Part shown: one piece after another, positions 36,072 through 59,059 of the stretch
Numbering within the stretch: the first letter of the stretch is position 1
Layout of the letters: each line of letters starts with the position of its first letter
The notes under the pieces: generated by a model
Told to the model about the DNA's origin: nothing
The model's database searches: none
Seen by the model: only the letters and a program-made list of their open reading frames with translations
Position numbers and translations under genes: made by a program
From: a virus
DNA: 64,000 nucleotides
Reading direction: 5' to 3' (one strand)
Virus record (IMG/VR): IMGVR_UViG_3300014501_000013
Location: 1 to 64,000 of that record

Positions 36072-36580
36072 ACCTCACTGGCCTTCCGGGGATCGGCCAG
36101 CTCACGAACTCGATTCGCGTTGGGCCATCGCAGCAGAACTCTTCACAGATATGGCTACAAAGCGCGCAGGCTCTCGACACGCTGGATCAGAACTTCCAGA
36201 GCGTTGCGGGCGTGGTCACCGATTTACAGGCGAGCGTCAGTGCGCCAGTGGCCACCTCGTCGCTTTATTACGACAACGGTTCCGGGGCTTCATTTACTCC
36301 CAACTTCGCTCAAGGCACGACGCAGGTATGCACACTGACCGGCAACGCCACGATAAACCCCTCGGCGGGAGCCAAAGCGGGGCAGGAAGTGATTATGATT
36401 CTGGTGCAGGATGCGACCGGCGGCTGGCAGGTCGCCAGCTGGGACGCGAGCTATTACTTCGCGGGCGAGTTCGATCTCGACCCGACGCCGAGCACAGCGA
36501 CAGTATTCCGGTTTGTTCCAAATCAGGCGGGGAACCTGATCCAAAGTGGGCCACCCGTCACAGGGATTGCATTTCCATGA
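36053..36580 (+). CDS. Tail-associated protein with fibre C-terminal-type domain
   Basis: TLTGNATI.P......GQ...MILVQDATGG..V.SW...Y.F; no signal peptide. Confidence 0.6.
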   Translation: MGSASVDLTGLPGIGQLTNSIRVGPSQQNSSQIWLQSAQALDTLDQNFQSVAGVVTDLQASVSAPVATSSLYYDNGSGASFTPNFAQGTTQVCTLTGNATINPSAGAKAGQEVIMILVQDATGGWQVASWDASYYFAGEFDLDPTPSTATVFRFVPNQAGNLIQSGPPVTGIAFP

Positions 36581-37842
36581 TTAAAACTCTACTTTTGTCC
36601 TCCCTTGTTCTCTGCGGTTGCCTTCATGGGCAATATCGCGTCACAGTGGCCGGGTCCGGCAACAAGCAGGCGTTCATCGCCGAGAATCCATCATCGGGCG
36701 TGAACGGTTCCTGTTACGACCTGCGCACGGTAGACCCTGGTACTGGCATTCTTCACGATGCTGGCCAGATGTGCGGTCTTTTTTACGCTACTGGCTACGC
36801 GAATGCTGGCGTCACCATTGAGACCGTCACCGGCGATAGCGTTTTTCAGCCCAACACCACCTTCCGAGGTCCCGGCATGATTGTTGGCGCGACCGGGCCA
36901 TCGAGCTATATCCCCACCGCTGGGCCTTATGCGGCGGTTATCTCGCCGAGCAATCCAGCGTATCTTGTCGTGGAAGGCACCACTGGTGCTGCGGCGATCA
37001 TTTTGAGAGATGGCGTCGGGCCGACCAATTCTAAAATGTGGGACTTCATTGCGGACGCTGGTGGCAACCTGCACTTCAGGGCCGTCAACGATATTTACGG
37101 CGCGGCGCAGGACTTTCTCACAATCTCCAGGTCGGGACTGACCATCAACTCGGCGACGTTCAATGAGTCTCTGCTATTTGGCGGCGACAATTCCTACAAC
37201 GTAGGATCAAGCACGAGTGCGGCGGTGAACGTGTACACCGCTGGAGTACAGCTTGGGCGTGGAAACGCGCGGCAGGGCAGCGCTACGTTCTTCAATCCCC
37301 TGAATGGCAATTCGTTCGTCATGGCTGGAACCAACGTGGCAACCGGCGGCGGGGATCTCGTGGTCGGCAATCTCTTTGGGAGCGGCGCAATCTACCCAAT
37401 AAACTCGTCCACCAACCTCGGCTATGCTTCAGGGCCGTTCGCAAATGCCTTCGTCACCAACCTCACCATCTATGGCACATGTACGGGGTGCAGCGGCGCG
37501 GCTGGCGCGAACACGGCGCTGTCGAACTTGGCGTCCACGGCCATCAATACCACGCTGAACACAACAAGCGACATCTATGTAAAGACGGCGAATGTCCACG
37601 TTCAGACTTCGGGCGGTGTGGACCTAATCGAACTTCAGTACTCGACGGGGACCGCAGGTGCGCTTCTGTTCAATAACTCCTCCGGCACCAATCTTGTGCA
37701 GTTCAATCAGTTCGGTGTGGACGTGGCGAACGGAGCGACCTACAACTACGGCGGACTGACTGGAGAAACGCATACTGTCACCACGGGAACTTGCACGATG
37801 AATTTCTCGGGCGGCATTCTCACGAGCACTTCAGGGTGTTAG
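36577..37842 (+). CDS. Signal-peptide-bearing tail-fibre-like protein
   Basis: ATGA-coupled start MIKTLLLSSLVLCGCLHG|Q; GANTALSNLASTAINTTL and C-terminal MNFSGGILTS fibre motifs. Confidence 0.7.
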   Translation: MIKTLLLSSLVLCGCLHGQYRVTVAGSGNKQAFIAENPSSGVNGSCYDLRTVDPGTGILHDAGQMCGLFYATGYANAGVTIETVTGDSVFQPNTTFRGPGMIVGATGPSSYIPTAGPYAAVISPSNPAYLVVEGTTGAAAIILRDGVGPTNSKMWDFIADAGGNLHFRAVNDIYGAAQDFLTISRSGLTINSATFNESLLFGGDNSYNVGSSTSAAVNVYTAGVQLGRGNARQGSATFFNPLNGNSFVMAGTNVATGGGDLVVGNLFGSGAIYPINSSTNLGYASGPFANAFVTNLTIYGTCTGCSGAAGANTALSNLASTAINTTLNTTSDIYVKTANVHVQTSGGVDLIELQYSTGTAGALLFNNSSGTNLVQFNQFGVDVANGATYNYGGLTGETHTVTTGTCTMNFSGGILTSTSGC

Positions 37843-38020
37843 CTATTTTCTCAAAAGCTTCCGCTGCTGTTCCCGCCCACTGTTCTGGCGTCATCTCTAC
37901 GCGAAGAACTTCGGTTTTAATGAATTGGCCTGCCGTTATGCGGGACGAACGGCTCTCGTAGATCACATTGCCAGCTTCAGGATTGTCTTCAATGCGAGTC
38001 ACGGTGAGCAGATATTTCAT
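37820..38020 (-). CDS. Antisense small hypothetical protein, probably leaderless
   Basis: MKYLLTVTRIED...; TACTAT (38028-38033) ends 7 nt before the ATG; fills the gap between two late genes. Confidence 0.5.
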   Translation of the reverse strand: MKYLLTVTRIEDNPEAGNVIYESRSSRITAGQFIKTEVLRVEMTPEQWAGTAAEAFEKIANTLKCS

Positions 38021-40550
38021 ATCTCTGATAGTACTTCTATTCGGTTCCGTCGCGGTGTTGGCCCAATCGGTGACCATCTCCGATACGCTCTACCTCCCTG
38101 ACGGTACGAAGTATTCAGGGCAACTCACGATCTCATGGCCAGTACCGTTCACGGGTGGTGATGGTCGGCAGATTCCATCGGGACCGCCGATCTCAACAAG
38201 CGTAAACAATGGAGTGCTGAGTGTGGCGCTTGAGGCGAATAGTACCGCGACACCAGCCGGCACGTTTTACCAAGTAGTTTACCGACCGGCGGGAAGTTCA
38301 GCTATTACCGAAATATGGATCGTCCCCTGCTGCTCTTCTCCGGTAAATCTGAGCACTGTCCGAGTGGCACTTCCGCCGTCGCCGTCCTTCATGATCGCGC
38401 TTTCGCAACTAGCCCAAGGCGGAGCGACTTCGGGCCAGTGCATCACATGGGGTGGCAGTTCGTGGGCCGTTGGCGCGTGCGGCAACCTGCCAAACATCGT
38501 GACACCTGGGACGAACACAAAGATCACCTACAACGCCCAAGGTCTTGTCACGTCAGCCGTCCAAGCTAACTTCACCGACTTGGCGGGATCTTTGCAACTC
38601 ACGCAGACGCCGCTCACTACAAGTCAGGACATCTTATTTGACAACGCCGGAAGTCTTGGGCGTCTTCCCATTTCCTTGGTTGGGAACGGAGCATGTCTTG
38701 GCAACTCCGGCGGCGTGTGGGCCAGTCTGGCGTGTTCGGGAGGCGGCGGTACAGGAACGGTCATCAACGACGCGCCGCTCACGAACGGGCAACTCGCGAT
38801 CGGTGGGACAGCGGGTGGCGTTCACATCACGGTCGGAGATTTGAGTGGGGACATTGCTACCGCTGGCAGCACCGTAACAGTGCTTCCTACTGTCAACTCG
38901 AACGTAGGCACCTGTGGCGATTCGACTCACGTTAGCCATATTACTCTCAATGCTAAAGGACAAGCCACGGCTTGTACTGCGGTGGCTATTTCCGGTGTTT
39001 CTTTCCCGTCTGCCTCGGCCCAGCTCCAATATCTACGCATTCAGCCCAACACCGGCAATCTTACTACTACCCAATTCGCGGGTCCGTTTGTGTTCTACCC
39101 GGAAGACTACAACTTCACTGCGCAAGCCCCAGGCGGCTCTCTGACAGGTGGTGGTGGTACTCAAACAATCAACCTCTCTCCGTGTCCTCTTGGCTTGAAT
39201 GGCTCGGATACATTGCACCAAGTGTATCTTAGCGGGGGAACGGGCACAGCCGAAGCCAAGCCGATTACGGGTGGTACCTGCATATCCGGCGCGTCATCGG
39301 GAACTATTACTCTGTCTCCAACGAACTCGCATAGCGGTGCGTGGACGGTCGGACCTGCATCGGCCGGAATCCAGGAAGCGCTGGTTGCCGCTAGTGGTTC
39401 TGGAGTGAAACTGCGCGATGCCACGTATGGCGTGTACGCGCCGATCTACGTGTGCCAAGGAACACTGACTGGCGCGGGGATGTTCAACTCCATCCTTCAG
39501 ATTCAAACGGCCTCTGTGGGCGCTATTGATGCACCGTGCCAAAAGGACACTTTTGAAAATTTCGGCATCACGACTGCCAGCATGACGCCGGGAACGAGCG
39601 GAAACTACGGAATCCGACTCGGCAACGGATCGGGACACGACAACTCTTTCACGCGCATCAACCGCCTTTACTTTGAGCCGCTGTACGACGCGATCCTTTG
39701 CATCAATTGCTCCCAGACTTCGATTACGAACAACGTTTTTTACAACTTCTACCACACCGCGATCACGGCTAACGACACCACGGGCGGAGACAACGATGGG
39801 CCTTGGATTCGCGGCAACGTGATGTTTAACTACAACTCGTACTCGACGCCGGCGCTCGCCTGCATGTACATCACTTCGACGGGTGGCATCACGATCACCG
39901 ACAACAATTGCTACGGAAGTTCGGCGCTTACTTCGCCGCAACTCCAGTACAACGTCTACATGAATCAGACGGCATCGACGCAGTTGACGATGAAAGGGAA
40001 TGTCTTCGAGACGGTATCAGTGGATAACGTAGCGCTGGTTGGGGTCTTTAATCTTATCACTATCACTGGCAATACCATCGCGCAGCCGCAAGTCGCCCAA
40101 TCGGGGTGGCGCGGCATTACGATTAGCGGCAATAACACGACCAGTCCATGCGGCAGCGGAATCGGCATCTGCCAGGTTGCGATTACAGGAAACACTATTC
40201 AGGGTCCGGGGCCAAGTTCTAGTTCTTCCGTCTGCATTGAACTGATCGGCTATATAAGTGGTGCGTTCATCGGCGGGAACCCCTGTAACTTTTCGCAGAT
40301 CGGCGTCAACATCGGCAGCAACGTGACGGCCACCACCGTGGGCCAGAACCAGATGTCCACATATAGCACTAACGTATACGGCGGTTCGACGGGCACAACA
40401 TGGGACTCGCCAGCAGCAATCGTCTGGTCTCAGCGCCCGATAGCAGCGAATGGTTCTGTTATCTACATGAGCGATGCCAACGCGGGCTGCACCGCTGGAG
40501 GCTCCAGTGGCCAACGGTGTGAATTTATAAATTCTGCATGGACCCATTAA
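38004..40550 (+). CDS. Signal-peptide-bearing tail spike with right-handed beta-helix (start 37992 or 38004)
   Basis: SRYFISLIVLLFGSVAVLA|Q; TKITYNAQGLVTSA fibre repeat; AGIQEAL...L.GAG...SIL then ITNN/ITGNTI beta-helix rungs. Confidence 0.75.
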   Translation: MSRYFISLIVLLFGSVAVLAQSVTISDTLYLPDGTKYSGQLTISWPVPFTGGDGRQIPSGPPISTSVNNGVLSVALEANSTATPAGTFYQVVYRPAGSSAITEIWIVPCCSSPVNLSTVRVALPPSPSFMIALSQLAQGGATSGQCITWGGSSWAVGACGNLPNIVTPGTNTKITYNAQGLVTSAVQANFTDLAGSLQLTQTPLTTSQDILFDNAGSLGRLPISLVGNGACLGNSGGVWASLACSGGGGTGTVINDAPLTNGQLAIGGTAGGVHITVGDLSGDIATAGSTVTVLPTVNSNVGTCGDSTHVSHITLNAKGQATACTAVAISGVSFPSASAQLQYLRIQPNTGNLTTTQFAGPFVFYPEDYNFTAQAPGGSLTGGGGTQTINLSPCPLGLNGSDTLHQVYLSGGTGTAEAKPITGGTCISGASSGTITLSPTNSHSGAWTVGPASAGIQEALVAASGSGVKLRDATYGVYAPIYVCQGTLTGAGMFNSILQIQTASVGAIDAPCQKDTFENFGITTASMTPGTSGNYGIRLGNGSGHDNSFTRINRLYFEPLYDAILCINCSQTSITNNVFYNFYHTAITANDTTGGDNDGPWIRGNVMFNYNSYSTPALACMYITSTGGITITDNNCYGSSALTSPQLQYNVYMNQTASTQLTMKGNVFETVSVDNVALVGVFNLITITGNTIAQPQVAQSGWRGITISGNNTTSPCGSGIGICQVAITGNTIQGPGPSSSSSVCIELIGYISGAFIGGNPCNFSQIGVNIGSNVTATTVGQNQMSTYSTNVYGGSTGTTWDSPAAIVWSQRPIAANGSVIYMSDANAGCTAGGSSGQRCEFINSAWTH

Positions 40551-40557
40551 ATTCTCT

Positions 40558-40884
40558 ATGAAACTACTACTCATTCTCTCACTATTTTCGTTGGCCGCAT
40601 TCGCTGCCGACGCACCGAAACCAACACCAACCCCGGTCAACCCGATCACGGACAAGCAAGCGAAAGATGCTGCTATCGTTCAGCGCGATTTCATGGTGGC
40701 CAAGTCGGATCTCGACGCGGCACAGACCAAGTTCAACGCAGCGCAGAAAGCGCTCATGGCCAAGTATGACGAACTGGGCGCGAGTTGCAAAACGATCAAG
40801 CAGACTTTTGAGCCGAACGCAATAGGGTGCGTGCCTGCTCCAGAGACAGCCGCAGTTACCGCGAAAACAGAACCCAAGAAGTAA
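40558..40884 (+). CDS. Secreted coiled-coil small protein
   Basis: MKLLLILSLFSLAAFA|A; two Cys. Confidence 0.7.
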   Translation: MKLLLILSLFSLAAFAADAPKPTPTPVNPITDKQAKDAAIVQRDFMVAKSDLDAAQTKFNAAQKALMAKYDELGASCKTIKQTFEPNAIGCVPAPETAAVTAKTEPKK

Positions 40885-40896: not shown

Positions 40897-41607
40897 ATGT
40901 CTTCAATGCCGATGTCACCGCAACAAATGATGATGATGCGCCAGCAGCAGCAAGGGAATCAACAGCAACAGGCAATGCCCGCTGCTGGCCCCGGCGGAGG
41001 TGCGCTCCCAATGATGCCACAACGTCCAGCGGGATCTCCCGGCGCATGGGGTTCTGGCGGCGGTGGGGCACCGATGGGCGGCCCTGGCCAGTGGGGTGGT
41101 GGCGCTCCCGGTGGAATGCCGCCGCGCCAAATGCCGCCGCAAATGGGCGGTCCCCCTGGCGGCGGGATGCCTCCTGGGATGCCGGGCGGAATGCCGCAGC
41201 AGGGGATGATGCCACCTGGAGGCGGCGGTGGGATGCCTCCGCGACCGATGGGCCAACAGATGGCTCCCCCCGGCGGAGGACCTAATTATGGGACTGGCTA
41301 CGGGAGTGCTCCTGGTGCTAACGGTGGTTTGCCTTCAGTAGGAGCCAACGCGACTGCTGGAAACTCGTATGGTCCAGGGGCTCCTCAAATGCCTCCAGGG
41401 ATGGGCGGCGGCCAAATGCAACCGATGGGTGGTCCATCAATGTCTGGCCAGCCAGCGCCCCCTGGTGCAGGTGCGCCACCGCAATCCGCCCAAAATCCAT
41501 GGGGCGGCGCTGGAGGAACTATGCAAGGGCTACCGCCGCAACAGGGCGGCGGTATGCAGCAAAACCAGCTCGCCATGCTTCGCCGTCAGCAGCCAATGAG
41601 CCAGTAA
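40897..41607 (+). CDS. G/P/M/Q low-complexity protein
   Basis: AAGGAG SD; no acidic residues. Confidence 0.7.
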   Translation: MSSMPMSPQQMMMMRQQQQGNQQQQAMPAAGPGGGALPMMPQRPAGSPGAWGSGGGGAPMGGPGQWGGGAPGGMPPRQMPPQMGGPPGGGMPPGMPGGMPQQGMMPPGGGGGMPPRPMGQQMAPPGGGPNYGTGYGSAPGANGGLPSVGANATAGNSYGPGAPQMPPGMGGGQMQPMGGPSMSGQPAPPGAGAPPQSAQNPWGGAGGTMQGLPPQQGGGMQQNQLAMLRRQQPMSQ

Positions 41608-41617
41608 GGAGTTCCCC

Positions 41618-43240
41618 GTGTCAACCGCTCCCGCACCGTACAGCAATTTCAGTTATTCGGATTGGCTCAACCAAGCTCCGTATCAGTCCTTCAACGATGG
41701 AAACATCAACGGTGTCCAGAACTCCAATTGGTCCAATCCGAACTCTGCCTTCCAAAGCAACCTTCTCAACGAGCAGGTTCAGGGCGGAGAACTGCAATCA
41801 GAGTTCGGGAACACGGCGAACTCTGCTCAACAGCTTGCAAATTACTACCGCGTGCCGATGGACCAGGCTGCGGGAGCGCTCGCCCAGACTCCAGGCTACA
41901 CATCCGGCGAACTGGGTAACATTCTCGATACCAGCGGCTACCAGCAGGGCGAGACCACGGGAGGGCAGTATGCCTCGATGGCCCCCACCGGGTCGCAGCA
42001 GTCGGCGATGGAGGGCAACCCGAACAGTTTCATGAACTGGTTCGATCCGGCGCAAACGCAGGGCGATATCACGACTGCCGCCGGCTATTCGCAAAATGAC
42101 CTGAACAACACCAACATCGCGTTGCAAAACACAATGAATAACCAGTCCGCTGGCTATTCAGGTGCGATCAATCCATCGGCGTTGACGGTTAACCCAGCGC
42201 TTCAGGGACAACTGCAAAACACGGTCGGCGGGGCGACCAGCGCGATCAATTCGGCTGTCAATAGCCCCAACCTTCAATTGAACCTCGCGCCACAGAACTA
42301 CCTGATGAGCAATCAGCAGGTTCAGGCAACACAGAACCAGGCGGCGCAAGACGTTCAGCAGCAGGCGCAATCCCAGTACGAGAACACCTACAAATCCGCG
42401 CTCGCTTCTGGCAATGCCGATCCCATGGCGCTCGCGGCGCTCCAACAGCAATCGCAGGCTACAGGTGAAGAAGCCGCGGCCAACGCTGAGACAAGTGCCA
42501 ACCTTGCAGCAACAGGCCAACAGCGAACCCTTGCGATGAACTACGCCCAAGCTCAGTTGGGAGCCGGGCAGACACAGGCGGGGTTGCAATCATCGGCGCA
42601 AGAGAACCTCCTTGGCCAGACGCTTGGAGAACAGACCGGGTACGCGGGCCTCCAGATTGGAGCGCAGCAGGGACTGACCCAAGACCAGATGACAGCGGTC
42701 CAGAATCAAGCGAACACGCAGACGGGAGCCAACGAATATCTCGGTACCACGGGCGTCAACTTACAACAGGGCGTCGGAGCGCAGGAAGAGGCTGCTCAGC
42801 AGTATTTGACGAATATGGGCACTGGCATAACAGAGGCGCAGAATACCGCGAAGACGGGCGCAGCCACCCAGCAGTATCAGAACCAGCTTCAGAACCAGAT
42901 GTACCAGCAGCAGAACACGTTCAACCAGAATACCGCGGTGCAGGATCGCCAGTCGGCGGCGTACTCGGCCGCCGCGAATGCGCGCATGGCCGGCCAAGGT
43001 CAGTTCCTCAATTGGTCCACAGGGGCCACCAGCGGAGCGACTAATCAGCAGTTGGCGAGCCAGAACATGCAGGCCGGTGTCTACGGTACGCAGGGTCAGT
43101 TGGCAAACAACGCTGCGGGTCAGTGGGGCAACTACCAGATTCAGAAGAATGGCCAGCCAGGGATGACCTCACAGGTTATGGGCGGAATTGCGGGGGCCGC
43201 ATCAGCAGCGGCACCGTATGCAGCGATGGCGTTCGCGTAA
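41618..43240 (+). CDS. Q/N/A-rich putative DNA ejection protein
   Basis: AAGGAG SD; helical Q/N/A-rich; hydrophobic GGIAGAASAAA tail as in P22 gp7-like proteins. Confidence 0.6.
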   Translation: MSTAPAPYSNFSYSDWLNQAPYQSFNDGNINGVQNSNWSNPNSAFQSNLLNEQVQGGELQSEFGNTANSAQQLANYYRVPMDQAAGALAQTPGYTSGELGNILDTSGYQQGETTGGQYASMAPTGSQQSAMEGNPNSFMNWFDPAQTQGDITTAAGYSQNDLNNTNIALQNTMNNQSAGYSGAINPSALTVNPALQGQLQNTVGGATSAINSAVNSPNLQLNLAPQNYLMSNQQVQATQNQAAQDVQQQAQSQYENTYKSALASGNADPMALAALQQQSQATGEEAAANAETSANLAATGQQRTLAMNYAQAQLGAGQTQAGLQSSAQENLLGQTLGEQTGYAGLQIGAQQGLTQDQMTAVQNQANTQTGANEYLGTTGVNLQQGVGAQEEAAQQYLTNMGTGITEAQNTAKTGAATQQYQNQLQNQMYQQQNTFNQNTAVQDRQSAAYSAAANARMAGQGQFLNWSTGATSGATNQQLASQNMQAGVYGTQGQLANNAAGQWGNYQIQKNGQPGMTSQVMGGIAGAASAAAPYAAMAFA

Positions 43241-43249
43241 AGGAACCTA

Positions 43250-45631: not shown

Positions 45632-45632
45632 C

Positions 45633-47123: not shown

Positions 47124-47713
47124 AATATTTGATGATTCCACTTTTCGCAATCGCCGCGTGGGCGCAGGAGGGGCAGCCCGTCAGCATCAGTCCCGCACCT
47201 GTGCCGCAAGCCTTCACTACGATCACACACTATACTAGCGGCAATCCTGACCGCGTTTGCAAGGCGCGATCCACGCAAGACGTATTCACGATCACGACCT
47301 CGGCGATCTCGAATGCAAACCCAGGCGTCATCACGGCCACGGCTCACGGTTTCTATTACGACTCGGGCAACACGAGCGTTGTTCAAAAGTTCGTTGTGTT
47401 CATCTCCGGACTCACGGGAAGCTGGGCACCGCTGAATGGGCTCCAAGTGGTTTTTGCATCGAGTGCCAACGCGCTGACAAGCACGGTTAACACGACGGCA
47501 TACGGTGCGGTAACCGGAACTGCCGTGGTTTCCTCGCGAGCCCCGCGCGTTACCGCCTCGATCTGGTCTGTGCTCACTACTGTCTACGATTCCAGCAATA
47601 ACCCGACAATCACTGCTTGGCCAGTTCCGACCACAGGTGCCACGCTCGGCAATCTTCAGGGTGGTCAAACGTCTTTCGCTTTCCCATGCGCGGCTCAAAG
47701 CGCGGTCCAGTAA
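47120..47713 (+). CDS. Signal-peptide-bearing FCCH-like beta protein
   Basis: MKYLMIPLFAIAAWA|Q; AISNANPGVITATAHG...VFISGLTGSW..LNG. Confidence 0.7.
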   Translation: MKYLMIPLFAIAAWAQEGQPVSISPAPVPQAFTTITHYTSGNPDRVCKARSTQDVFTITTSAISNANPGVITATAHGFYYDSGNTSVVQKFVVFISGLTGSWAPLNGLQVVFASSANALTSTVNTTAYGAVTGTAVVSSRAPRVTASIWSVLTTVYDSSNNPTITAWPVPTTGATLGNLQGGQTSFAFPCAAQSAVQ

Positions 47714-50700: not shown

Positions 50701-52141
50701 GAACGGAAACAATCCGCAGATTTGGAAATGGGCCCAGACTAGCAACAATCAACAGGCCTTTATGATTGAGGAAAGCGCTGCGGCTACTGGAGGGACAGGC
50801 GTTCTACAACAACTGGTATATATTCAAACAGTAACGGGCTCTACTGCGATTCCTCTTTATGTAGAGAACGTCCTGAACGGCTCCCAAACGCTTCCTGCCG
50901 TTATCATCGGGCCACACTGGAACACCACTGGACTGGTGGACGCAGCGCTACTTGTCGATCCCGCCTACACGGCAGCAGCCACCGGCTCTCTGCTGATCGA
51001 CGCTCAACTTAGCGGCACCTCCCAATGGAAGGTGGACATGGCCGGGAACTCGACGCAACTCGGCGGGGTCATCGCTACAACCGGAGCGTTCGGCGGCGTG
51101 ACTATCGGATCGAACGCGCTGGCGGTGACAGGCACGGCAAATATCTCTGGTGCAACGACTCTTGGCGTTCAAAATACGGTTGCTGGTAATTTACTCGTCT
51201 CGGGTTCCTCTAGCGCGGGAGGTTCTCTGACGATCTATGGCACCGGCGCATCTCCCGGCAGTTCTGTGCTCTCAGTCTCGACGGCGGGAACCACGTTGAA
51301 TCTCGGCTCGACGAACGCGACGGTGACGACGGCGGGAGTCGCGGGGCTTGCCTCTCTCGCCCTCAATGGCTGCACCATTGGGGTGTCTAAACTGTGTGTC
51401 AGTGGAAATGCAACTTTCACTAGCATCCTTACAGGGCAAGTTGGGTTCAACGGTTCCTTATCGCACACAGCTTGGCTCACTGGCGGTTTACTCATCTACA
51501 ACGCCGCCCAAACCCTTACCGATACCAGTTCGTCGGGAACCGTTGCGACAGCTTACAGCAATGTCTTTGGTGGTGATGTAATCGCGGCAAGTTCAGCCTC
51601 CGTGTACACGAACTACTATGCGGGCTACTTCGCGGCCGAGACCGCTGGGACCAACGTCACCTTGACAAATTCCTGGGGTCTCGGCGCGGACTCGCTGCAT
51701 GTCGGAACCTCGAATCCGTTCACGGTCGCCGCGAACGGGGCGATGTCGGGGAGCACGCTGGCACTTAGCGGCCTTCTAACTGGTGGCATCATCCACCAGT
51801 ACGGCGCGGCATTCGGCACTCCAGGCGGCGCGGCCCTGACAACGGGTGGCATCCAGTACTTCAACATGCCGCAGTCCTGCACTGTTGGTGGCTACGAGAT
51901 TACCGCTGACGCCGGAACTGCCACGGTCAAGTTCTGGAAGATCGCAGCGGGCACGGCCATTCCAACTGCGGCGAATGTCATCAACACTTCCGGGGTGGCA
52001 CTCGCGAGCGGGACCCACATCAAGAGCACCACGGTTACCGATTTCACCACCACGACAGTTACGGCTGACGACATCGGGGCGGTCACACTCACCGCTGTAT
52101 CTGGCGCTGGGTATGTACAGGCGGTATTGCTATGCCAATAG
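47723..52141 (+). CDS. 1472-aa signal-peptide-bearing long tail fibre/adhesin
   Basis: AAGGAG SD; MRYFLLLLLPFGLAA|Q; fibre modules ITALTGDVT, AGSYTNTNLTVDAKGRITAA, SAQLRGVLSDESGTG, GALGTP; 18 Cys in local pairs. Confidence 0.8.
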   Translation: MRYFLLLLLPFGLAAQWLPTGLPGDPYRSGPLPSSITTGQCLYNNNGVWGGTGCAGGSGAPTVATYILQTTNATLTNAQVLASLGTGPLFNTTGTGVLGIATISSPITFTGGAFACPTCGVTGSPLSQFASTTSAQLRGVLSDESGTGVALFANGALGTPISGVMTNVTGLPPAGVTATQGNGTKFQLSTGTTTLNDCVKYDANGNTVDAGAACGLGGGTVYPSGTGITVVTGGTAWGTTLADPLTGTHGGTGVNNGAFTITLAGNLVTTGAFNTTFAQQGSTTITTPTTSSTMARADAAQTFTGIQTFSTPIALTSLAATVVNATTPGAGIAHFAGSTQTVTSSAVSLTADVSGILAGANGGMGVNNGSFTETLAGNVVFTGAFNPTFAIPATGTYTLAVGTELVSGGALGTPASGVATNLTGTAAGLTAGAATNMAGGAAGGISYQTGAGASTFLASTGYSVLVTGATNPQYATPTGNGQCFMSGASSYATTIPSFQTCPSGGITALTGDVTASGSGSVAATLATTAVTAGSYTNTNLTVDAKGRITAAANGSASGSAYATIDVGGTPLTQRNTLNFISGSGITQSCVDNSGATRTDCTPSINSTFVPTIANLLEGNNDVGFSTTGTTGYVAAPTAGCSTFALQTGARGWISVDTSSTTTASLNFCGSGVKNIKQIDGATDPGTTITANQPFPVFYNGTVWLDLFSGISGGGSGVTSVGLVGTANQLTVTGTSPITTSGSWTISVPSTFTFPGTVTNNLSIFGATTSAQLRGVLSDESGTGVALFANGALGTPVSGVMTNVTGYPGDSSLVTVGTVTAGTWHGSVVTGTYGGTGVNNGAFTETLSGNVVFTGAFNPTIAIPATGTYTLAVGTELISGGALGTPSSGLATNLTGTAAGLIVGAANNIIGGAAGSLPYQTGSGATTFLASTGYSVLVTGATNPQYATPTANAQCFMSGAASYATTIPSFQTCPAGGSSALSSITAATGSNTILNGNNPQIWKWAQTSNNQQAFMIEESAAATGGTGVLQQLVYIQTVTGSTAIPLYVENVLNGSQTLPAVIIGPHWNTTGLVDAALLVDPAYTAAATGSLLIDAQLSGTSQWKVDMAGNSTQLGGVIATTGAFGGVTIGSNALAVTGTANISGATTLGVQNTVAGNLLVSGSSSAGGSLTIYGTGASPGSSVLSVSTAGTTLNLGSTNATVTTAGVAGLASLALNGCTIGVSKLCVSGNATFTSILTGQVGFNGSLSHTAWLTGGLLIYNAAQTLTDTSSSGTVATAYSNVFGGDVIAASSASVYTNYYAGYFAAETAGTNVTLTNSWGLGADSLHVGTSNPFTVAANGAMSGSTLALSGLLTGGIIHQYGAAFGTPGGAALTTGGIQYFNMPQSCTVGGYEITADAGTATVKFWKIAAGTAIPTAANVINTSGVALASGTHIKSTTVTDFTTTTVTADDIGAVTLTAVSGAGYVQAVLLCQ

Positions 52142-52149: not shown

Positions 52150-53598
52150 ATGCGAAAACTACTTATTGTCCTTCTCCTAAGTCTCCCGGCTTTCGCTGCC
52201 ACGAACAACGTTACCAGCGGCACCGTGTTCAAGCTTGACGCCTCGACCGGCGTGGATACTAACGGAGGCGGCTTCGACGCAACCGCTTCGTGCAGTGGCA
52301 GCGGCGGCTCTGACTTAACCCTGTCCGCCCCCGTCGCTACGACCCTGGCCACAAGCACAGGCAGCGCCTCGACCACAATCACCCAGGTCGGCGGCACATG
52401 GACGAGCTCGATGGTTTGCAATGTCATCCATATAAACAGCGGAACCAATTTTACTGTTGGGTTCTATACTATCGTGGCGTTCACTAATTCCAATAACCTC
52501 GTCCTGAATGTAAGCCCGTGCCCTACAACCGCCTGCACTACTGGAGTTACTGACGTCGGAGGCCCGCTGCTGACCATCGCCAAGGCCATCACCGCCGTAG
52601 CTGCTGGCAACACTGGCTATGTAAAGAGCAGCGCGACCTATTCGATCAACGCGAGCAATGCTTTTGCCACGAATGGCACGAGTGGACTTCCTGTTTCGTG
52701 GATCGGCTACACGAGTTCGCTTACGGATGGCGGTCATCCGACGATCCAGATCAGCAGCGGAACGGGCCTTACCATCTTTAACGCAACCGGAAAAAGCTTC
52801 CAACAATTTAGACATTTCACCCTGGATTGCAACGGCAAGACCACGTCCACTGGCCTGGCGGCAGGCAACGCAGGAACCGTTTACGACGACATCAGTGTAA
52901 CGGGCTGCACGGCGGTTGGAATAAACATATCGGCGTCACATGCGCAGGTGAGCAATAGTAGCGTGAGTGGCATGACCGCGTGCACGGCGAGTTCCGGAGC
53001 ATTCACAATCTCCCAGACGAATGTCTACCTTTTTAACAATCGCGCGACCGGCAATGCCTGCACTGGGTTCTGGGATTCGGCTGGGGGCGAGAATACTTAC
53101 ATCGGAAATGTTTCGGACAATAACACCGGAGCGTCTACAGACGGATTCTATAAATCTGGGGTGGCGGGGTTCACGATGCATGACAACGTGGCCTACCTGA
53201 ACGGTCGGGACGAGTACCGTTTTGATAACGCAGCCGCGCTTGATTCATTCAGTTTCTATAACAACGTGGCGTGGGGCACGGGCGGAAAGTGCTTCAACTC
53301 AACCACTACCAACTGGTCGGCAGATCCTGCGTTCGCGTGGGATTACAATGCGGACGGAGGGGGATGCACGGCTTACACGGGCATTCCGGCTGGGCTGCAC
53401 GACGTTACTCTAACCGTCGATCCTTTCGTGGCTGGAGCGTCCAACAACTTTGCGCTGAACGCAACGACGGGAGGTGGGGCGCTTTTGCGAGCCGTTGGCT
53501 TCCCCGGAGTTAGGAACAGCGGTGGAACCGGGTACAAAGATATCGGCGCGCTGCAATCACAGGGTTCTTCACCGGTGTCGTATCCTATTTCGCAGTAG
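52150..53598 (+). CDS. Signal-peptide-bearing beta-helix protein
   Basis: AGGAG SD; MRKLLIVLLLSLPAFA|A; PLLTIAKAI...AGNT.YVK; terminal DIGALQ. Confidence 0.75.
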   Translation: MRKLLIVLLLSLPAFAATNNVTSGTVFKLDASTGVDTNGGGFDATASCSGSGGSDLTLSAPVATTLATSTGSASTTITQVGGTWTSSMVCNVIHINSGTNFTVGFYTIVAFTNSNNLVLNVSPCPTTACTTGVTDVGGPLLTIAKAITAVAAGNTGYVKSSATYSINASNAFATNGTSGLPVSWIGYTSSLTDGGHPTIQISSGTGLTIFNATGKSFQQFRHFTLDCNGKTTSTGLAAGNAGTVYDDISVTGCTAVGINISASHAQVSNSSVSGMTACTASSGAFTISQTNVYLFNNRATGNACTGFWDSAGGENTYIGNVSDNNTGASTDGFYKSGVAGFTMHDNVAYLNGRDEYRFDNAAALDSFSFYNNVAWGTGGKCFNSTTTNWSADPAFAWDYNADGGGCTAYTGIPAGLHDVTLTVDPFVAGASNNFALNATTGGGALLRAVGFPGVRNSGGTGYKDIGALQSQGSSPVSYPISQ

Positions 53599-53797
53599 GC
53601 CGTATGAAGATCTGCGACATGACCCCCATATACACCATGGCCAAGATGATGACGATGTTCTGGAGAGCGATGATGGGAGCAAGCAGGATACGTTTGAGCG
53701 AGGTACCTTTATGACGTTCTGGAGGCCCGGCGGGCGCGTATGTCGCCTGGGAGTCGGTGTTGGAATATTCGGTAAAGGGGGACCATTCGGATTGCAT
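53585..53797 (-). CDS. Antisense small membrane protein, probably leaderless
   Basis: C-terminal hydrophobic helix; promoter TTGCCG (53834-53829)-17-TATGCT (53811-53806) ends 8 nt before the ATG. Confidence 0.55.
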   Translation of the reverse strand: MQSEWSPFTEYSNTDSQATYAPAGPPERHKGTSLKRILLAPIIALQNIVIILAMVYMGVMSQIFIRPTAK

Positions 53798-56700
53798 AGA
53801 CTACCAGCATACGCCTTTCTCCTATTTGCGGCAATCGTGATAGTACCAGTACGCGCCGCCTGCACCGCCAGCGTGGTAACGCCAGCCGCCAGCGCCTCGA
53901 TCAGCGGTCTCTCCTATGCCCTCACCGCCAGCCTCTCTACGTGCCCAACGGCCCTCTCGGTCGAGTGGATGATCGACGGCGAATCGCAAGGCGTCTTCTG
54001 GCAGGCTCCGTGGTCTATCTCCTCCTGGAACACCAACAATCGCTGGCGTGGCCCCGCTCACAACGCCTACGTGATCGTTCGCGATCCGACCGGAGCGACT
54101 ATCGCCACATCGCCGACCAACACCTTCGCCATCACGAATGACTATCTCGAACCCGCTGCCTACATCAACCTCGTCTCCGTCACGCCATCGACCGCGATCT
54201 CGAGCAACTGGTCGGGCGTAGTCAACTTGGTCGCGACCTTCAACGGCACCAACGCCACCAATGCCAAGGCAATCACCGTTTACGTGGACGGGGACGTGCT
54301 TGGCTTCGAATCACTCAACGAATTATCCACGAGCGGTTCGACCGCGACCACGATGAACGCAGCCGTCAACACGACGCAGTATCTAAATGAGGGCCATGAA
54401 GTCTGCTTAGTCGTAAAAGATATCGCCTCCGGCCGTCCTGGTGTCACCAACGGCGGCTACCCGTTCGGCGAATGGTGTCAGCAGGTGACGTTCTCGAATA
54501 CCTCGACCATCCTGCTCAAGAACGCGACCACAAACGCGGACTACGTGTGTTGGGGCGGTGGCGCTTGCAACACGTTTTCGAGCCTCACTGCTCCAGCATC
54601 AGGTACGGTCAACGTCACCACCGGCGATTTTCTGCTGGTCTGCGATGGCTACTTTCAGGGCGGCGCTACCACAATAACCGACACGCTGGGAAATAGTTGG
54701 ACGGCGGTCAATACCGGAACGAAACAGGCAAACTGGAATCAATACTGTTTCTATTCGGCGAACGTAACGGGCGGCGCGGATGCCTTCACCGCGACCTTCG
54801 CAGGCGGCGGAGCGAAAAGCATGGCACTGCTGGTGCGCGAGTATTCAGGCGTGGCCACTAGTTCGCCAATCGACACCCAAATCACTTCGACAGGCACCTC
54901 CTGCGCGTCTCCCTGCGTTGTCACTTCCGGCACGTTCACTACCTCGAACGCAAACGATATGATCGCTTTGTATTACGTGTCCAATATAAATGGCCAAGTA
55001 TTCCAGAACGGTCTGAACGCCAGCCTCGATAGCACCACGAGCGCCACTGGCGGAGGGACATCACAACTATTAACTGCAACAGTCAGCGGAGGTACAGCGA
55101 CGATCGGGATTGCGAACGGTAGCAGCCTAACCTACGGCATGACCGTAGTCGCTCTCAATGCGGCATCCAACACACCTATTGCAACTCCCAGCCAGCTCAC
55201 CCTCTCGCCCAAGGACTGGGTGATCTCGCCATCGTCGGGGACCATCCAACTTACACCCTCGATTGCGAATGCGGATACTACCTCGACGACGGTCACGAGC
55301 GCTATGAACCCGGTCTACACGACCACGAATAGTTCGGTCTGCACTGTTTCCTCCAGCGGCCTCGTCACGGGTGTGGCGTATGGTTCTTGCGGCGTTACAA
55401 TTACGCTCGGCAACGGATTGACGGAAACCATCTACGGCTGGGTTTCTTCCACCAACGTAATCCCCTGCCAGACGACGACTGGCCAAATCTCAACCACCAA
55501 CACAGGTTGCCTGTGGGTAGCTAGCGTATTCAATTCCTCGGGCATCGCACTGTTTCATGATGCTCTGAAGACACCCACTCAAGTCGGAATCGCCTACCAG
55601 AACGCTGGTTGGAACACCGTCGAAGATTCTCCTGCGCCATCAACTGGCTGGACTGGAGTAAACGGCACCTGTGCGAGCTTCCAATCGACTCTCAATACAT
55701 ATATTTCAACCCTGACAACACTCTATGCTCCGTTCAAGTTCTACTTTCATGGAGTCGCCACATCGCTCATAACCGGCGTTTTTCCGAACCAGTTCTATGT
55801 CGGAGTGCGTGGCCTTGGCGCGACGTGTTCGCCCCAGAACTGGCAGTACCTAGCTCAGCAGTGGGTTGCTTCCGGAATCCTTCTATCACTGGAAGGACCG
55901 GATGAAGTGGACGCCGATTACTCCTATCCAGTCCCATCGCCCGTTATCAGTTCCAGTGGGCCGTTCACGGGTATCACCTGCACAGTTAGCGGGACTCCAG
56001 TATGTACAGTAGCCTATGCCAACCCGCAATCTGCTACCAACCAGAACGGCCCTGGGCGAATTGGGATCTTCGGTGGGACAAGCACAGCAGGGCTCGCTAT
56101 AAATAGCGCTATCGGAACACCAAATACCAACACTGGCCTCTACGTTCCATCAGGAGTCAGTGGTGGGTTCACATTCACTGGGCCATCCGGAGCGTCTGGC
56201 GCAAATATCACGTGGGTCAGTGATCCATCCATCCGGATTGAGCCCTTCGCATTCAATTGGCAAACCGCTGTTCCTGGCGGCGGTGGAGACTATTCACACT
56301 ATCAGGACTTCGCGACCATGTCCTCATTGGTTCACGCTGGAGGATCTATTATCAGTTCGGCTCCCAGAGCTATCGCCAGTTCTATTTCCCAGTGCGGCTG
56401 GGGTGGCGCTTGCTCCTATGCCGCCGGATCACCTGCGTTCTCCGACTACGCCATCATCTACAACTCGCCGGGCTCAAACGGCACAGCGCAATATGTCGCC
56501 CTGCCTGACATCCGAATCTCCAGGACCCCCAACCTCAACGTCTTCCAGCAGAACCGCAAGTTCATAAACGGCGCCGGATCGCTTCGCGCCTTCCTTGGAC
56601 AGACGCAATTCATTCAGACGAACTGGGGAATGAACGGGCAAATCATCACTGGCGTGTCGTGCTCCGGTTCCCTCTGCACGTTCCCTTCTCCCATCTGCGG

Positions 56701-58096
56701 GGCCGGTACAGCAAACAGCCTATGTAACGTAGTCCCTTATGTGTCGCGCGTCATCGGTTCTAGTTCATCGAACTCGTACTACAACGCGAATTTCTATATC
56801 GATAACTGTCCGACCGCGACGACATGTAACATCTCGCTGCAATATCCATCAACGGCGGGACTTGTTCAAGGATCTGGAGGCACGTTAACGTTCGCCAACG
56901 GCGTCACGATGGGGCCAACCAATCCATTCCCCTGCATCATCGTCAACGGGTTCTCTCCAAATAACACATTCAATCTACGCAGTTCAACTGTAGGCACGGG
57001 CGGCAGTTGCAGCGGCACCACGAGCGTACCGGCTGCCGTCACCCACAGCGCTGGGCTCACGTTCACGATCTCTGGCATGACCGGATCGAGTGCTAGTTAT
57101 TACAACTCCACCACCTTTATCCTGAGCCAGTTTCCGAGTCCCTACATCACCGAATCCGACACGCCGCGCGAAGTCCCTCCATCGAGCCAGTCCACCAGCA
57201 GCGTGACCTTCACCCTCAACGCCGATGACGGTTGGGTACGCGGGCAGGGACAATCATTCTATGGTGAGATCGTCCAAGGCCCGCGAGTGCCGTTCGCCTT
57301 TGTAGCGGCGCAAGCGATCACGGCAGCCACCGGGGTTAGGGCGTACACCAGCGGTGAGAACTTCAACGTCGATCAGACTTTCTCTCGTAGCTTCGGCACC
57401 TTCCCTTGTCTAAATGGCGGCGACTGCCTCCAGGGCGGCGCGACTCAGTTCTACGACCAAGGTGCGGATTTGATTCGGTTCTTCAATTCTCCGACCAACG
57501 CTAACCTGTTACTGGAAAGCTTGGCCATAACCGGGTATCTCTACGGCACGCATGGGAACGCCCCGGACCTTGGGTTCAACATCGAATCTAGCGTTCGGCA
57601 AAGCAGCGTGGGGAACCTGCTCCTGGTCGGAAATTTCAATGATGGGCCGGTCACCCCGGCGATTCCCATTTCTGCCTGCATCGTCAGTGGCCAGTCGGCT
57701 ATCCGCTACACCGCCTCGGCGCTTGGCGGAATCGCAACTGCGTCAATCTCTTCTGGAACCACCTCTAACTCCCCGACCATTCCCGCGGGCGGCATGGTGA
57801 TCTACAAGTGCCCTAACGTAAGCGCCGGCGTACTTCAGCAACCAACCATCGCCGCGCTTCTGACAGATGTCGCCAATGCCACCTCCGTCGCCGTCGAGTA
57901 CGCCTATTCTCCGTGGTTCCTCTCGGGGCTTCCACAAGCTGGTGTCCCACTCGCGGTGAGCAGTTCGACGCCTGCGACCGGATTCCTATTGCCAGTCGAT
58001 CTGAAGCTGGGGCCGGTTAGCTATCGGTTGGTGTACTCAGGGGCGTCTGGAGTATTAGCGACGGGCGATATCCAGACGATCGGAGGAGTGCAATGA
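53792..58096 (+). CDS. Large signal-peptide-bearing Ig-domain / putative glycoside hydrolase protein (start uncertain: TTG 53792 or ATG 53711)
   Basis: HRLPAYAFLLFAAIVIVPVRA|A; Ig-like repeats; Big_2-like SSVCTVSSSGLVTGVAYGSC; SLEGPDEVD clan-A-like motif. Confidence 0.7.
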   Translation: MHRLPAYAFLLFAAIVIVPVRAACTASVVTPAASASISGLSYALTASLSTCPTALSVEWMIDGESQGVFWQAPWSISSWNTNNRWRGPAHNAYVIVRDPTGATIATSPTNTFAITNDYLEPAAYINLVSVTPSTAISSNWSGVVNLVATFNGTNATNAKAITVYVDGDVLGFESLNELSTSGSTATTMNAAVNTTQYLNEGHEVCLVVKDIASGRPGVTNGGYPFGEWCQQVTFSNTSTILLKNATTNADYVCWGGGACNTFSSLTAPASGTVNVTTGDFLLVCDGYFQGGATTITDTLGNSWTAVNTGTKQANWNQYCFYSANVTGGADAFTATFAGGGAKSMALLVREYSGVATSSPIDTQITSTGTSCASPCVVTSGTFTTSNANDMIALYYVSNINGQVFQNGLNASLDSTTSATGGGTSQLLTATVSGGTATIGIANGSSLTYGMTVVALNAASNTPIATPSQLTLSPKDWVISPSSGTIQLTPSIANADTTSTTVTSAMNPVYTTTNSSVCTVSSSGLVTGVAYGSCGVTITLGNGLTETIYGWVSSTNVIPCQTTTGQISTTNTGCLWVASVFNSSGIALFHDALKTPTQVGIAYQNAGWNTVEDSPAPSTGWTGVNGTCASFQSTLNTYISTLTTLYAPFKFYFHGVATSLITGVFPNQFYVGVRGLGATCSPQNWQYLAQQWVASGILLSLEGPDEVDADYSYPVPSPVISSSGPFTGITCTVSGTPVCTVAYANPQSATNQNGPGRIGIFGGTSTAGLAINSAIGTPNTNTGLYVPSGVSGGFTFTGPSGASGANITWVSDPSIRIEPFAFNWQTAVPGGGGDYSHYQDFATMSSLVHAGGSIISSAPRAIASSISQCGWGGACSYAAGSPAFSDYAIIYNSPGSNGTAQYVALPDIRISRTPNLNVFQQNRKFINGAGSLRAFLGQTQFIQTNWGMNGQIITGVSCSGSLCTFPSPICGAGTANSLCNVVPYVSRVIGSSSSNSYYNANFYIDNCPTATTCNISLQYPSTAGLVQGSGGTLTFANGVTMGPTNPFPCIIVNGFSPNNTFNLRSSTVGTGGSCSGTTSVPAAVTHSAGLTFTISGMTGSSASYYNSTTFILSQFPSPYITESDTPREVPPSSQSTSSVTFTLNADDGWVRGQGQSFYGEIVQGPRVPFAFVAAQAITAATGVRAYTSGENFNVDQTFSRSFGTFPCLNGGDCLQGGATQFYDQGADLIRFFNSPTNANLLLESLAITGYLYGTHGNAPDLGFNIESSVRQSSVGNLLLVGNFNDGPVTPAIPISACIVSGQSAIRYTASALGGIATASISSGTTSNSPTIPAGGMVIYKCPNVSAGVLQQPTIAALLTDVANATSVAVEYAYSPWFLSGLPQAGVPLAVSSSTPATGFLLPVDLKLGPVSYRLVYSGASGVLATGDIQTIGGVQ

Positions 58097-58154
58097 ACAA
58101 CAATTGGAATGATGGCAGTGTTGTAGGGGAAGTACTATGGAATGGAGAACTAAC

Positions 58155-58550
58155 ATGAAACACCTTTTGATTCTCGCTGTTCTTTCGGCCAGCCTGATGG
58201 CCGCACAATCCAGAACCGTAAATGTAAGCTGGACGCCTTCCACGTCAACCGGAATAACCGGCGTGGCGATCTCGACCGGCACATCGGCTACTGGCCCTTT
58301 CACTTTCAAAGCTTGCGTGGGGGCCGTGAGCGGCCAGACTTGCATATCCGGCTCGACGCCTACCACTACGACTTACGCCGACACCGAAGCGGTTGGAACC
58401 ACAGTGTTCTACCAGGTTGTTGCGTTTGCGGCGGCATGCACACCTACAACTCCGGCGACGACCGCCTGTGGTTCTAGCGTGGCGGCGGTTGCGAGCACGA
58501 CCGTGCCCTCGCAGCCTGGGATATCGACCGTGATACTCGTTGTGCCGTGA
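58155..58550 (+). CDS. Secreted FN3-like protein
   Basis: GGAG SD; MKHLLILAVLSASLMAA|Q; VNVSWTPS...GPF...TTYADT.....VFYQVVA; 4 Cys. Confidence 0.7.
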   Translation: MKHLLILAVLSASLMAAQSRTVNVSWTPSTSTGITGVAISTGTSATGPFTFKACVGAVSGQTCISGSTPTTTTYADTEAVGTTVFYQVVAFAAACTPTTPATTACGSSVAAVASTTVPSQPGISTVILVVP

Positions 58551-59059
58551 AGCGCACACTCATAGCTGCGTTGATCGTTGGGCTTGCTCTGTTCGGGCAG
58601 ACGGCACCCGGACCCATCGGCAACCTCACGCTCACGGTGGGAGGCGTTGCGCTGACGGGCATCACCAGCCTCACGCTGAGCGCTGGAACGGGCACCGTGG
58701 TGAGTTGCCTCCCAAGCCCCTGCGCGGTGAGTGCTGGAGGCGCCCTGACGGTGCAGGTTTCGGCTAACACCGCTGTCGTCCTTTCCTACCCGGACGCCAT
58801 GGCCGCAGCGCCGTTCGACTGCGTCTCAACCAGCGGGACCATCGCCAGTGTCTGCAATCTCAAGGTAGCGCCCACCGTACCGCCGGTCTTCGTGGCGCTG
58901 ACGACCTCGGTAAACTGTCCCGGCGCTTGTTCGCTGAATGTGAGCAATACCGGGATCAAGGCTATCAAGACGAACGCGGCTGGAGCGACGGATGCTACGG
59001 TGATGGCCGGGACACATCTGCTCCGTTACGACGGCACGGTTTATAGGCTTTTGCTTTAG
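58547..59059 (+). CDS. Secreted protein with a tail-fibre domain
   Basis: MKRTLIAALIVGLALFG|Q; SLNVSNTGIKAIK...LRYDGTVYRL domain also present inside 47723..52141; 6 Cys. Confidence 0.7.
   Translation: MKRTLIAALIVGLALFGQTAPGPIGNLTLTVGGVALTGITSLTLSAGTGTVVSCLPSPCAVSAGGALTVQVSANTAVVLSYPDAMAAAPFDCVSTSGTIASVCNLKVAPTVPPVFVALTTSVNCPGACSLNVSNTGIKAIKTNAAGATDATVMAGTHLLRYDGTVYRLLL

Follow-up and report, generated by a model that had tools for sequence, protein, structure and literature searches.

Predicted Sec export and cysteine pairing of spike and fibre proteins in the late operon of an uncultured tailed phage

Nine late genes of an uncultured tailed phage, among them those for its candidate tail spikes and its long fibre-like protein, encode products that begin with predicted general secretory (Sec) signal peptides and that retain even numbers of cysteines once these leaders are removed. 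The window analysed is the whole stretch of 64,000 nucleotides at the start (positions 1 to 64,000) of the single 73,805-bp virus record IMGVR_UViG_3300014501_000013 in IMG/VR, and the nine genes lie toward its end. On the basis of the leaders, the logic of their cleavage sites, a link between export and cysteines, and the folds of the spikes, Sec export of the nine proteins and their oxidative folding in the periplasm are very likely. That the exported proteins then dock on the virion at lysis, a step that we infer together with its timing, is a proposition for and against which our judgement is evenly balanced. The initial annotation of this DNA had put forward export, oxidative folding and late addition to particles; the first two are supported here by a mature N-terminus shared between exported and unexported relatives, by cysteine parity, by leaders that run through a whole module, and by cultured phages with the same trait. 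The nine genes, named hereafter by their start coordinates, and four leaderless genes lying between them are as follows, with predicted cleavage sites marked by an arrow.

36577..37842, plus strand: 421 residues, signal peptide probably of the lipoprotein type (L-C-G-C, Cys15), six further Cys; called by heuristic.
37992..40550, plus strand: 852-residue spike, 22 Cys in local pairs; AlphaFold2 (AF2) model, Foldseek and homologs.
40558..40884, plus strand: 108 residues, helical, signal peptide (AFA↓AD or FAA↓DA), 2 Cys; called by heuristic.
40897..47123, plus strand: four leaderless, Cys-free proteins of 236, 540, 793 and 496 residues; assigned by position.
47120..47713, plus strand: 197 residues, signal peptide (AWA↓QE), 2 Cys; called by heuristic, GGAG 5 nt upstream.
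47723..52141, plus strand: 1472-residue long fibre-like protein, signal peptide (LAA↓QW), 18 Cys; AGGAG 5 nt upstream.
52150..53598, plus strand: 482-residue Pel9A-like right-handed beta-helix, signal peptide (AFA↓AT), 10 Cys; AF2 model and Foldseek.
53792..58096, plus strand: 1434 residues (1461 from ATG 53711), signal peptide (VRA↓AC or RAA↓CT), 32 Cys; one Big_2 immunoglobulin-like domain.
58155..58550, plus strand: 131 residues, beta-rich, signal peptide (MAA↓QS), 4 Cys; GGAG 7 nt upstream.
58547..59059, plus strand: 170 residues, beta-rich, signal peptide (LFG↓QT), 6 Cys; called by heuristic.

Signal peptides were called on all open reading frames by a heuristic of our own and not by SignalP; a substrate of Sec and signal peptidase I was taken to begin with a basic n-region, followed by a hydrophobic core, uncharged and 7-15 residues long, and by small residues at -3/-1, the whole fitting into roughly the first 15-35 residues. 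The nine late genes originally named as starting with Sec-type leaders were all recovered in this way, with a basic n-region, an uncharged 8-16-residue hydrophobic core and a small-x-small site at each N-terminus. Leaders are found in 9 of the 15 genes at 36.5-59.1 kb vs 0 of the 14 at 19.7-36.5 kb (Fisher p = 7e-4), in keeping with the earlier statement that the head and tail-core genes have none, and, applied to the control phage Tunturi 3, the same heuristic called no leader in any of 27 late genes. The predicted cuts expose Gln (A/G↓Q) in six of the nine. Eight of the nine products look like signal peptidase I substrates and the 36577 product like a lipoprotein. A lipobox follows the pattern [LVI]-x-[GAS]-C where the hydrophobic core ends, and the 36577 product shows V-L-C-G-C with Cys15, a feature kept in its sole homolog P0002 (49% identity, leader and lipobox both retained). 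At an ATGA the start codon of this gene and the stop codon of the tail-core gene before it overlap; a metagenome scan with its product returned only a 1.5-kb Joint Genome Institute (JGI) fragment, 95% identical and with frameshifts, and its nearest Atlas clusters are viral, at lead level only.

The assignment of the starts bears directly on the leaders. A Shine-Dalgarno motif is present at five of the nine starts, three further starts overlap or abut the upstream stop, and the TTG at 53792 has only a G-rich stretch upstream. Two of the starts first proposed need qualification, with the leaders holding in both cases: for the second gene ATG 37992 (AGGA 9 nt upstream) is likelier than GTG 38004, and the seventh gene has a possible start at ATG 53711, with GAGG upstream, 27 codons before TTG 53792. 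The choice between 53711 and 53792 may be regarded as ambiguous, and the predicted signal peptide would stand under both. Initiation at 53711 would lengthen the leader to 50 residues, with a long basic n-region that recalls the extended signal peptides found on large adhesins. True starts downstream of the hydrophobic segments would have undone the proposal, but no in-frame start near the cleavage sites of the nine genes has a Shine-Dalgarno motif, and no alternative start, upstream or downstream, removes a leader. A second, leaderless isoform made from an internal start is unlikely because no in-frame start near a cut has a ribosome-binding motif, and this candidate was rejected also on the ground that a Met lies near the cut in 3 of 63 members of the spike family described below. 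Peat contigs of at least 99% identity span the 47120 and 47723 starts, and both leaders are unchanged among the differences listed. Two other candidate identities were rejected: the 58155 and 58547 products, neighbours of the candidate endolysin, as spanins, which pair an outer-membrane lipoprotein with a type II protein of the inner membrane that has a coiled coil in the periplasm, since neither product has a lipobox and both are, by eye, beta-rich and Gly/Thr/Ser-rich; and the nine proteins as cargo of type IX secretion, since no C-terminal Por_Secre_tail domain was found and a Pfam scan of the nine gave one Big_2 domain only.

The family of the 52150 spike allows leader-bearing and leaderless forms of one protein to be compared. 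An exhaustive search gave 2261 cluster representatives, mainly from viral records, the nearest Atlas clusters of the window protein being 91-100% viral; the leader analyses cover the best 150 of the 2261 representatives. About half of these have a leader, and the rest begin M-A-L-S-A-N-T-V-W; of the 62 leaderless members, 52 carry Ala as the second residue and 56 carry Trp as the ninth. In 53 of 63 leader-bearing members an AXA-like site places the same Trp at mature position 8, so that removal of Met from the one form and signal-peptidase cleavage of the other would yield one and the same mature N-terminus. On the family tree the leader state is strongly clustered, with at least six changes, and the window protein falls inside an all-leader clade of 20. 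Leaderless members adjoin tape-measure-sized genes in sipho-type tail modules. No tblastn match to the family was obtained in GenBank phages. Among bacterial genomes the spike profile matched 3 of 401 from Acidobacteriota, of which one was inspected and proved leaderless, and a genome motif scan gave 13 genuine-looking copies, chiefly from Planctomycetota and Acidobacteriota, of which 12 have no leader. The sole leader-bearing copy in the genome collection is in a metagenome-assembled genome (MAG) of Saccharibacteria, members of the candidate phyla radiation (CPR) whose cells are thought to be single-membraned; in such a cell the leader would deliver the protein to the exterior.

The mature chains of the nine window proteins contain, in order, 6, 22, 2, 2, 18, 10, 32, 4 and 6 Cys; the number is even in all nine, and the Cys stand mostly in local pairs, which agrees with the first description. 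The four ejection-like proteins (40897-47123) are Cys-free, and so are the 22367 and 23662 products (22367-24021) and the 26552 product (26552-27997), the scaffold-like protein being one of these three. The earlier claim that scaffold and ejection-like proteins are without Cys is correct, except that the latter number four and not three. These four, which had no Pfam or PHROG match, are probably internal or ejection proteins, as judged by position only; Cys-free large proteins would fit passage through an oxidising periplasm in unfolded form. In the 52150 family the number of Cys is similar, about 10, with or without a leader, and it is the parity that differs: the count is even in 51 of 66 leader-bearing vs 22 of 62 leaderless members (Fisher p = 2.5e-6). 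Air oxidation after lysis was rejected as the source of this bias because it would be expected to act on both forms, and the bias is seen only with the leader. Ten further uncultured phages show the bias too, with even counts in 26 of 32 leader-bearing proteins vs 42 of 86 of their other proteins, and among the homologs of the 37992 spike the count is even in 61 of the 82 that have a leader.

Structural models, all of monomers, support the identification of two of the leader-bearing proteins as spikes. The AF2 model of the 52150 product has a predicted local distance difference test (pLDDT) score of 89.7, with the leader as a low-confidence helix ahead of the confident fold; Foldseek matches in the PDB include 1ru4, 7w1c, 4ru4 and 4y9v, there are matches in BFVD as well, and the closest solved structures are pectate lyase Pel9A (template modelling (TM) scores 0.51/0.60), phage capsule depolymerases and tailspikes. 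In the model of the 37992 product residues 370-800 are at pLDDT 80-90, and the C-terminal 430 residues form a beta-helix for which Foldseek found the Pam1, CBA120, Det7 and HK620 tailspikes and phi29 gp12. This beta-helix is preceded by a conserved domain of ~100 residues and a fibre-repeat stalk, 340 residues together. Taking a right-handed parallel beta-helix in a phage structural module as the fold criterion for a tailspike or depolymerase, both modelled products are assigned to that class. Four fibre motifs quoted in the initial annotation were confirmed in the proteins concerned: the 37992 product contains TKITYNAQGLVTSA and TCGD...ATAC, the latter flanked by Cys, and the 47723 product contains ITALTGDVT and AGSYTNTNLTVDAKGRITAA.

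Homologs of the 37992 product have a signal peptide in 82 of 107 cases, and the Cys-flanked stalk repeat at residues 285-345 shows 56% identity to the "tail protein" gp113 of phage Tunturi_4. Many of the long homologs (P0186-P0252) open with a conserved extended leader of the type GRRPMGRLFYWAL, which may serve export or sorting specifically in the Acidobacteria lineage. Several homologs are on contigs of 160 kb to 1 Mb, some of them named Candidatus (Ca.) Sulfotelmatobacter. The long fibre-like 47723 product is Gly/Thr/Ser/Ala-rich with internal repeats and with its Cys in local pairs, and its C-terminal 115 residues match, at 46% identity, the C-terminal end of a spike with a signal peptide from the IMG/VR phage G409. 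The small 40558 product, for which no Pfam or PHROG match was obtained, is possibly a periplasmic helper. Pfam and PHROGs gave nothing for almost all of the late proteins, PDB sequence searches with three of the leader-bearing window proteins gave no match, and Pfam and PHROG scans of the genome found no receptor-binding candidates besides the leader-bearing proteins.

A survey of other phages for the same pattern had been suggested, and it shows leaders in ten other uncultured phages and in two cultured ones, Tunturi 1 and 4; by these sequence comparisons the predicted trait is one that extends beyond this phage. In IMG/VR, large same-strand neighbours of the spike gene have a leader in 22 of 51 cases at leader-bearing loci vs 10 of 177 at leaderless loci (p = 1e-9), and in the ten uncultured phages the fibre genes beside the spike also carry signal peptides. 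In a 52-kb sipho-like record seven leader-bearing genes stand in a row and one gene has the size of a tape measure; a 75-kb phage record has four leader-bearing genes, and a 40-kb podo-like record two or three. These three phages have no detectable capsid-like gene in common with the window, which nevertheless exchanges spike modules with the uncultured phages, the N-domain behind the leader included.

Among cultured phages, Tunturi 1 (PP887698), a podovirus of Tunturiibacter psychrotolerans X5P2, has predicted leaders on gp12, gp13, gp14 ("tail spike"), gp16 and gp17 ("virion structural protein"), whose mature chains contain 20, 10, 20, 1 and 32 Cys, respectively; the product names of the Tunturi phages are annotations of the depositors. 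The siphovirus Tunturi 4 (PP885687) has leaders on gp113 and gp114 and none on its tape measure, its distal tail proteins or its fibre gp111. Tunturi 3 has X5P2 as host, as does Tunturi 1, and its late proteins are leaderless and its fibres Cys-poor; export thus appears to be a strategy of the phage and not a requirement of the host. Tunturi 1 and Tunturi 3 constitute a natural control pair, with opposite fibre designs on one host strain. Large Cys-free proteins positioned like the ejection-like proteins of the window are found in both (Tunturi_1 gp36/37 and Tunturi_3 gp24/25). The sequences of these phages and of the 52150 family point to at least six gains or losses of the predicted leader within a single spike family, and to coexistence of the trait with the classical route on one strain. 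The paper that describes the Tunturi phages mentions no signal peptides (PMC11924767).

In the assembly scheme that we favour, the nine proteins would cross the inner membrane late in infection by way of the host Sec system with removal of their leaders, and would fold in the periplasm, where host oxidising machinery would form their disulfides. At least five of the nine would be receptor-binding or polysaccharide-cutting parts, namely the two beta-helix spikes, the long fibre and two other large proteins, and the small leader-bearing proteins probably act beside them in the periplasm as helpers or distal subunits. Assembly in the cytoplasm would yield heads that are filled with DNA and carry a bare tail core; the two sets would meet after the holin breaches the inner membrane, in a still-enclosed cell or just after the burst, and spikes and fibres would dock as the last step of assembly. 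Docking is favoured because the leader-bearing proteins are the sole receptor-binding candidates, because their leaderless kin belong to tail modules, because the mature N-terminus is kept, and because spikes are added last in podoviruses. The leaderless spikes P22 gp9 and T7 gp17 can dock in vitro as well, so that late addition is physically possible. As a tentative generalization, many tailed phages of soil and peat may use such two-compartment assembly, with a Sec-sent module that docks once the holin opens the membrane; until then the module, oxidised by the disulfide machinery of the host, would be kept in the periplasm, where a lipoprotein of the phage might anchor it.

Several considerations weigh against this scheme. 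We know of no mechanism by which fibres in the periplasm could reach particles in the cytoplasm, and docking would be opposed by dilution at lysis. The layout of the 37992 family, a leader followed by a beta-rich domain, is that of the cell-surface mosaic adhesive trimer (MAT) fibres of Bdellovibrio, and homologs of the 37992 product occur on contigs so long that they are probably chromosomal. The heuristic behind the signal-peptide calls is our own, Tunturi_3 uses leaderless, Cys-poor fibres on the host strain of Tunturi_1, the "virion structural" labels in the Tunturi phages are annotations, and the Tunturi paper contains no virion proteomics (PMC11924767).

Three other explanations have been weighed against docking of the exported module. 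It is very improbable that the leaders are not cleaved export signals, but start artefacts, uncleaved anchors or tail-internal hydrophobic plugs on proteins that fold in the cytoplasm. The ambiguous start at 53792 and the four of nine starts that have no Shine-Dalgarno motif would fit such an explanation; against it, the leaders are kept in orthologs, leaderless relatives begin exactly at the predicted cut, even Cys counts track the leader and not the family, none of the alternative starts removes the leader, and, for the peat contigs that span two of the starts, none of the differences listed falls inside a leader. A mixed use of the module is improbable as well. Some of the proteins, for instance the long fibre and one spike, would then dock at lysis, and others, for instance the small proteins, the lipoprotein and the Pel9A-like lyase, would remain free or attached to the envelope and act as depolymerases, chaperones or exclusion factors. 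Such mixed use would accommodate the differences in size and fold among the nine proteins, one of them lipoprotein-like, and has a parallel in the Tunturi_4 cluster, which combines the leaderless fibre gp111 with the leader-bearing gp113 and gp114, but no feature was found that splits the nine into two classes, leader and even Cys being common to all.

The remaining explanation, the main rival of docking and in our judgement less likely than it, is that the proteins are exported and disulfide-bonded but act off the particle, serving the infected cell as enzymes and adhesins that are either free or anchored in the envelope. They could cut capsule or exopolysaccharide for escape of the progeny, destroy or mask receptors against superinfection and sticking to debris, or be displayed in the manner of MAT fibres; the true receptor-binding protein of the virion would then be an unannotated leaderless protein. 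In line with this, the 52150 fold is closest to that of a secreted enzyme, pectate lyase Pel9A, by the TM scores given above and by its Atlas structural neighbours, MAT fibres have the same succession of leader, conserved N-domain and fibre, the 36577 product resembles a membrane-anchored lipoprotein, and 37992 homologs reside on the contigs of 160 kb to 1 Mb already mentioned. Secreted proteins encoded by phages are moreover known, with signal peptides on 5% of prophage carbohydrate-active enzymes (CAZymes) (PMC13507307) and with the proteins following the Q-rule that Porphyromonas gingivalis phages encode (PMC10367356). On the other hand, some 16 kb, a fifth of the genome, would be spent on non-structural late proteins and no recognisable receptor-binding protein would be left; the leaderless kin lie inside sipho-type tail modules beside tape-measure-sized genes; both routes preserve the same mature N-terminus; and the 340 residues of N-domain and stalk in the 37992 spike would be superfluous for a soluble enzyme.

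The remainder of the genome has few recognizable relatives. Downstream of the terminase gene come portal-, scaffold- and capsid-sized genes, tail-core candidates and then the long late operon; within the head and tail-core block all roles besides that of the terminase are drawn from gene order, and genome-wide the roles of genes beyond the terminase and the two spikes rest on position. The features outside the leader-bearing module are the following.

19768..36580, plus strand: head and tail-core block, leaderless; terminase, portal-, scaffold- and capsid-like genes and tail-core candidates.
19768-21858, plus strand: large terminase; phrog_2 match.
32706, 34089 and 36053 (starts), plus strand: tail-core candidates, by gene order.
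59083..59451, plus strand: leaderless protein of 122 residues with a Tlde1/YkuD-like L,D-peptidase fold; PF10908 1.8e-11, phrog_24118 2.6e-31.

The 59083 product is a candidate endolysin of an unusual type, and as it has no leader a holin would be needed for its release. The early region, on the opposite strand, includes a DnaB-type helicase gene. Beyond the window, at 66554-68264 on the minus strand, are two small genes with lipoprotein-like leaders, one of them also with a twin-arginine motif (RRDFGR ... LIGC). The ends of the record (1-60; 73746-73805) are runs of CCCGGA/CCCGTA-type hexamers with no exact terminal repeat; these could represent a telomere-like repeat, a packaging-related repeat or an assembly artefact. 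Among 50,697 GenBank phages the terminase has distant matches only, the best at 29% identity, and the capsid-like protein has no match there or in five IMG/VR phages that have leaders. No relatives of this phage emerged when IMG/VR was scanned with two single proteins, the 793-residue ejection-like protein and the capsid-like protein, and near-identical DNA is contained in permafrost and peat metagenomes of several studies.

An acidobacterium living in peat or permafrost is the probable host. This is based on the module shared with Tunturi_4, the Ca. Sulfotelmatobacter homologs of the 37992 spike, a match to the capsid-like protein (28% identity) beside terminase- and portal-sized genes in an Acidobacteriota MAG, a guanine plus cytosine (GC) content of 57%, the peat and permafrost habitat, and the occurrence of A/G↓Q in receptors of Acidobacteriaceae, where 8 of 8 sampled TonB-type receptors of one MAG have it. 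Several TonB-type receptors of a verrucomicrobial MAG have A/G↓Q too. A Bacteroidota host, as might be suggested by the Q-rule, under which most signal peptidase I substrates in that phylum have Gln at +1, was rejected: the Gln rule holds for six of the nine cuts, but all host links are to Acidobacteriota, and the source paper of the Q-rule reports high Q-values outside Bacteroidota too (PMC5837995). An insertion sequence (IS) transposase gave no host clue, having no relative among the genome contigs.

In a literature search of incomplete coverage no description was found of Sec signal peptides on the fibres or spikes of tailed phages; the closest papers deal with secreted phage proteins of unknown function (PMC10367356) and with secreted prophage enzymes (PMC13507307). 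The present analysis adds a test of parity inside a single family, the mature N-terminus common to both forms and the link to the cultured Tunturi phages. If the scheme is true, the order and place of assembly would change, as would the determinants of burst size and lysis timing. It would explain Cys-rich fibres, perhaps unusually stable in acidic soils, and receptor-binding proteins for structural or applied work would need export and oxidation instead of cytoplasmic expression. Annotation would be affected because pipelines tend to class phage proteins with signal peptides as morons or auxiliary genes. The scheme is directly testable now, because the cultured Tunturi 1 and 4 carry the trait and Tunturi 3 grows on the strain of Tunturi 1 without it.

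Textbook morphogenesis of tailed phages is wholly cytoplasmic, and the leaderless tailspikes and fibres of podoviruses and other phages (P22 gp9, T7 gp17, HK620, Det7, CBA120) resemble the window spikes in having a beta-helix behind an N-terminal domain and in their position at the end of the late operon. They differ in that the known podovirus tailspikes are made without a signal peptide and fold in the cytoplasm, a reducing environment, whereas every spike or fibre candidate here has a Sec leader and paired Cys. Tunturi 1 and 4 are alike in having blocks of Cys-rich "tail spike", "tail protein" or "virion structural" products with Sec-type leaders that are often cut before Gln, and in Tunturi 1 the leader block adjoins leaderless, Cys-free ejection-like proteins, as in the window; yet terminase, portal and capsid of the two show no detectable similarity to those of the window. 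The g3p and g8p virion proteins of the filamentous phages (Ff), among them the receptor-binding protein, have cleavable leaders, are inserted or exported by the host and form periplasmic disulfides before they join the particle. Ff virions, however, have no head or tail and are extruded without lysis, whereas a tailed phage such as that of the window would join parts from two compartments at lysis. Other Sec-exported phage proteins are non-virion proteins: endolysins with a signal peptide or of the signal-arrest-release (SAR) type, spanins, and the T5 lipoproteins Llp and Cor. These known exported proteins, late or moron products that serve lysis or exclusion or have no known function, are small and number one or few per genome, in contrast to the whole 16-kb fibre and spike module seen here. 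The Q-rule proteins of P. gingivalis phages expose Gln after cleavage, as do those described here (PMC10367356). The MAT fibres of Bdellovibrio bacteriovorus, with a leader, a conserved beta-rich domain and a phage-like fibre at the cell surface (PMC10769870), are comparable by layout; their genes are chromosomal in a predatory bacterium that displays the fibres on its own surface, whereas the genes of the window belong to the late operon of a terminase-encoding phage.

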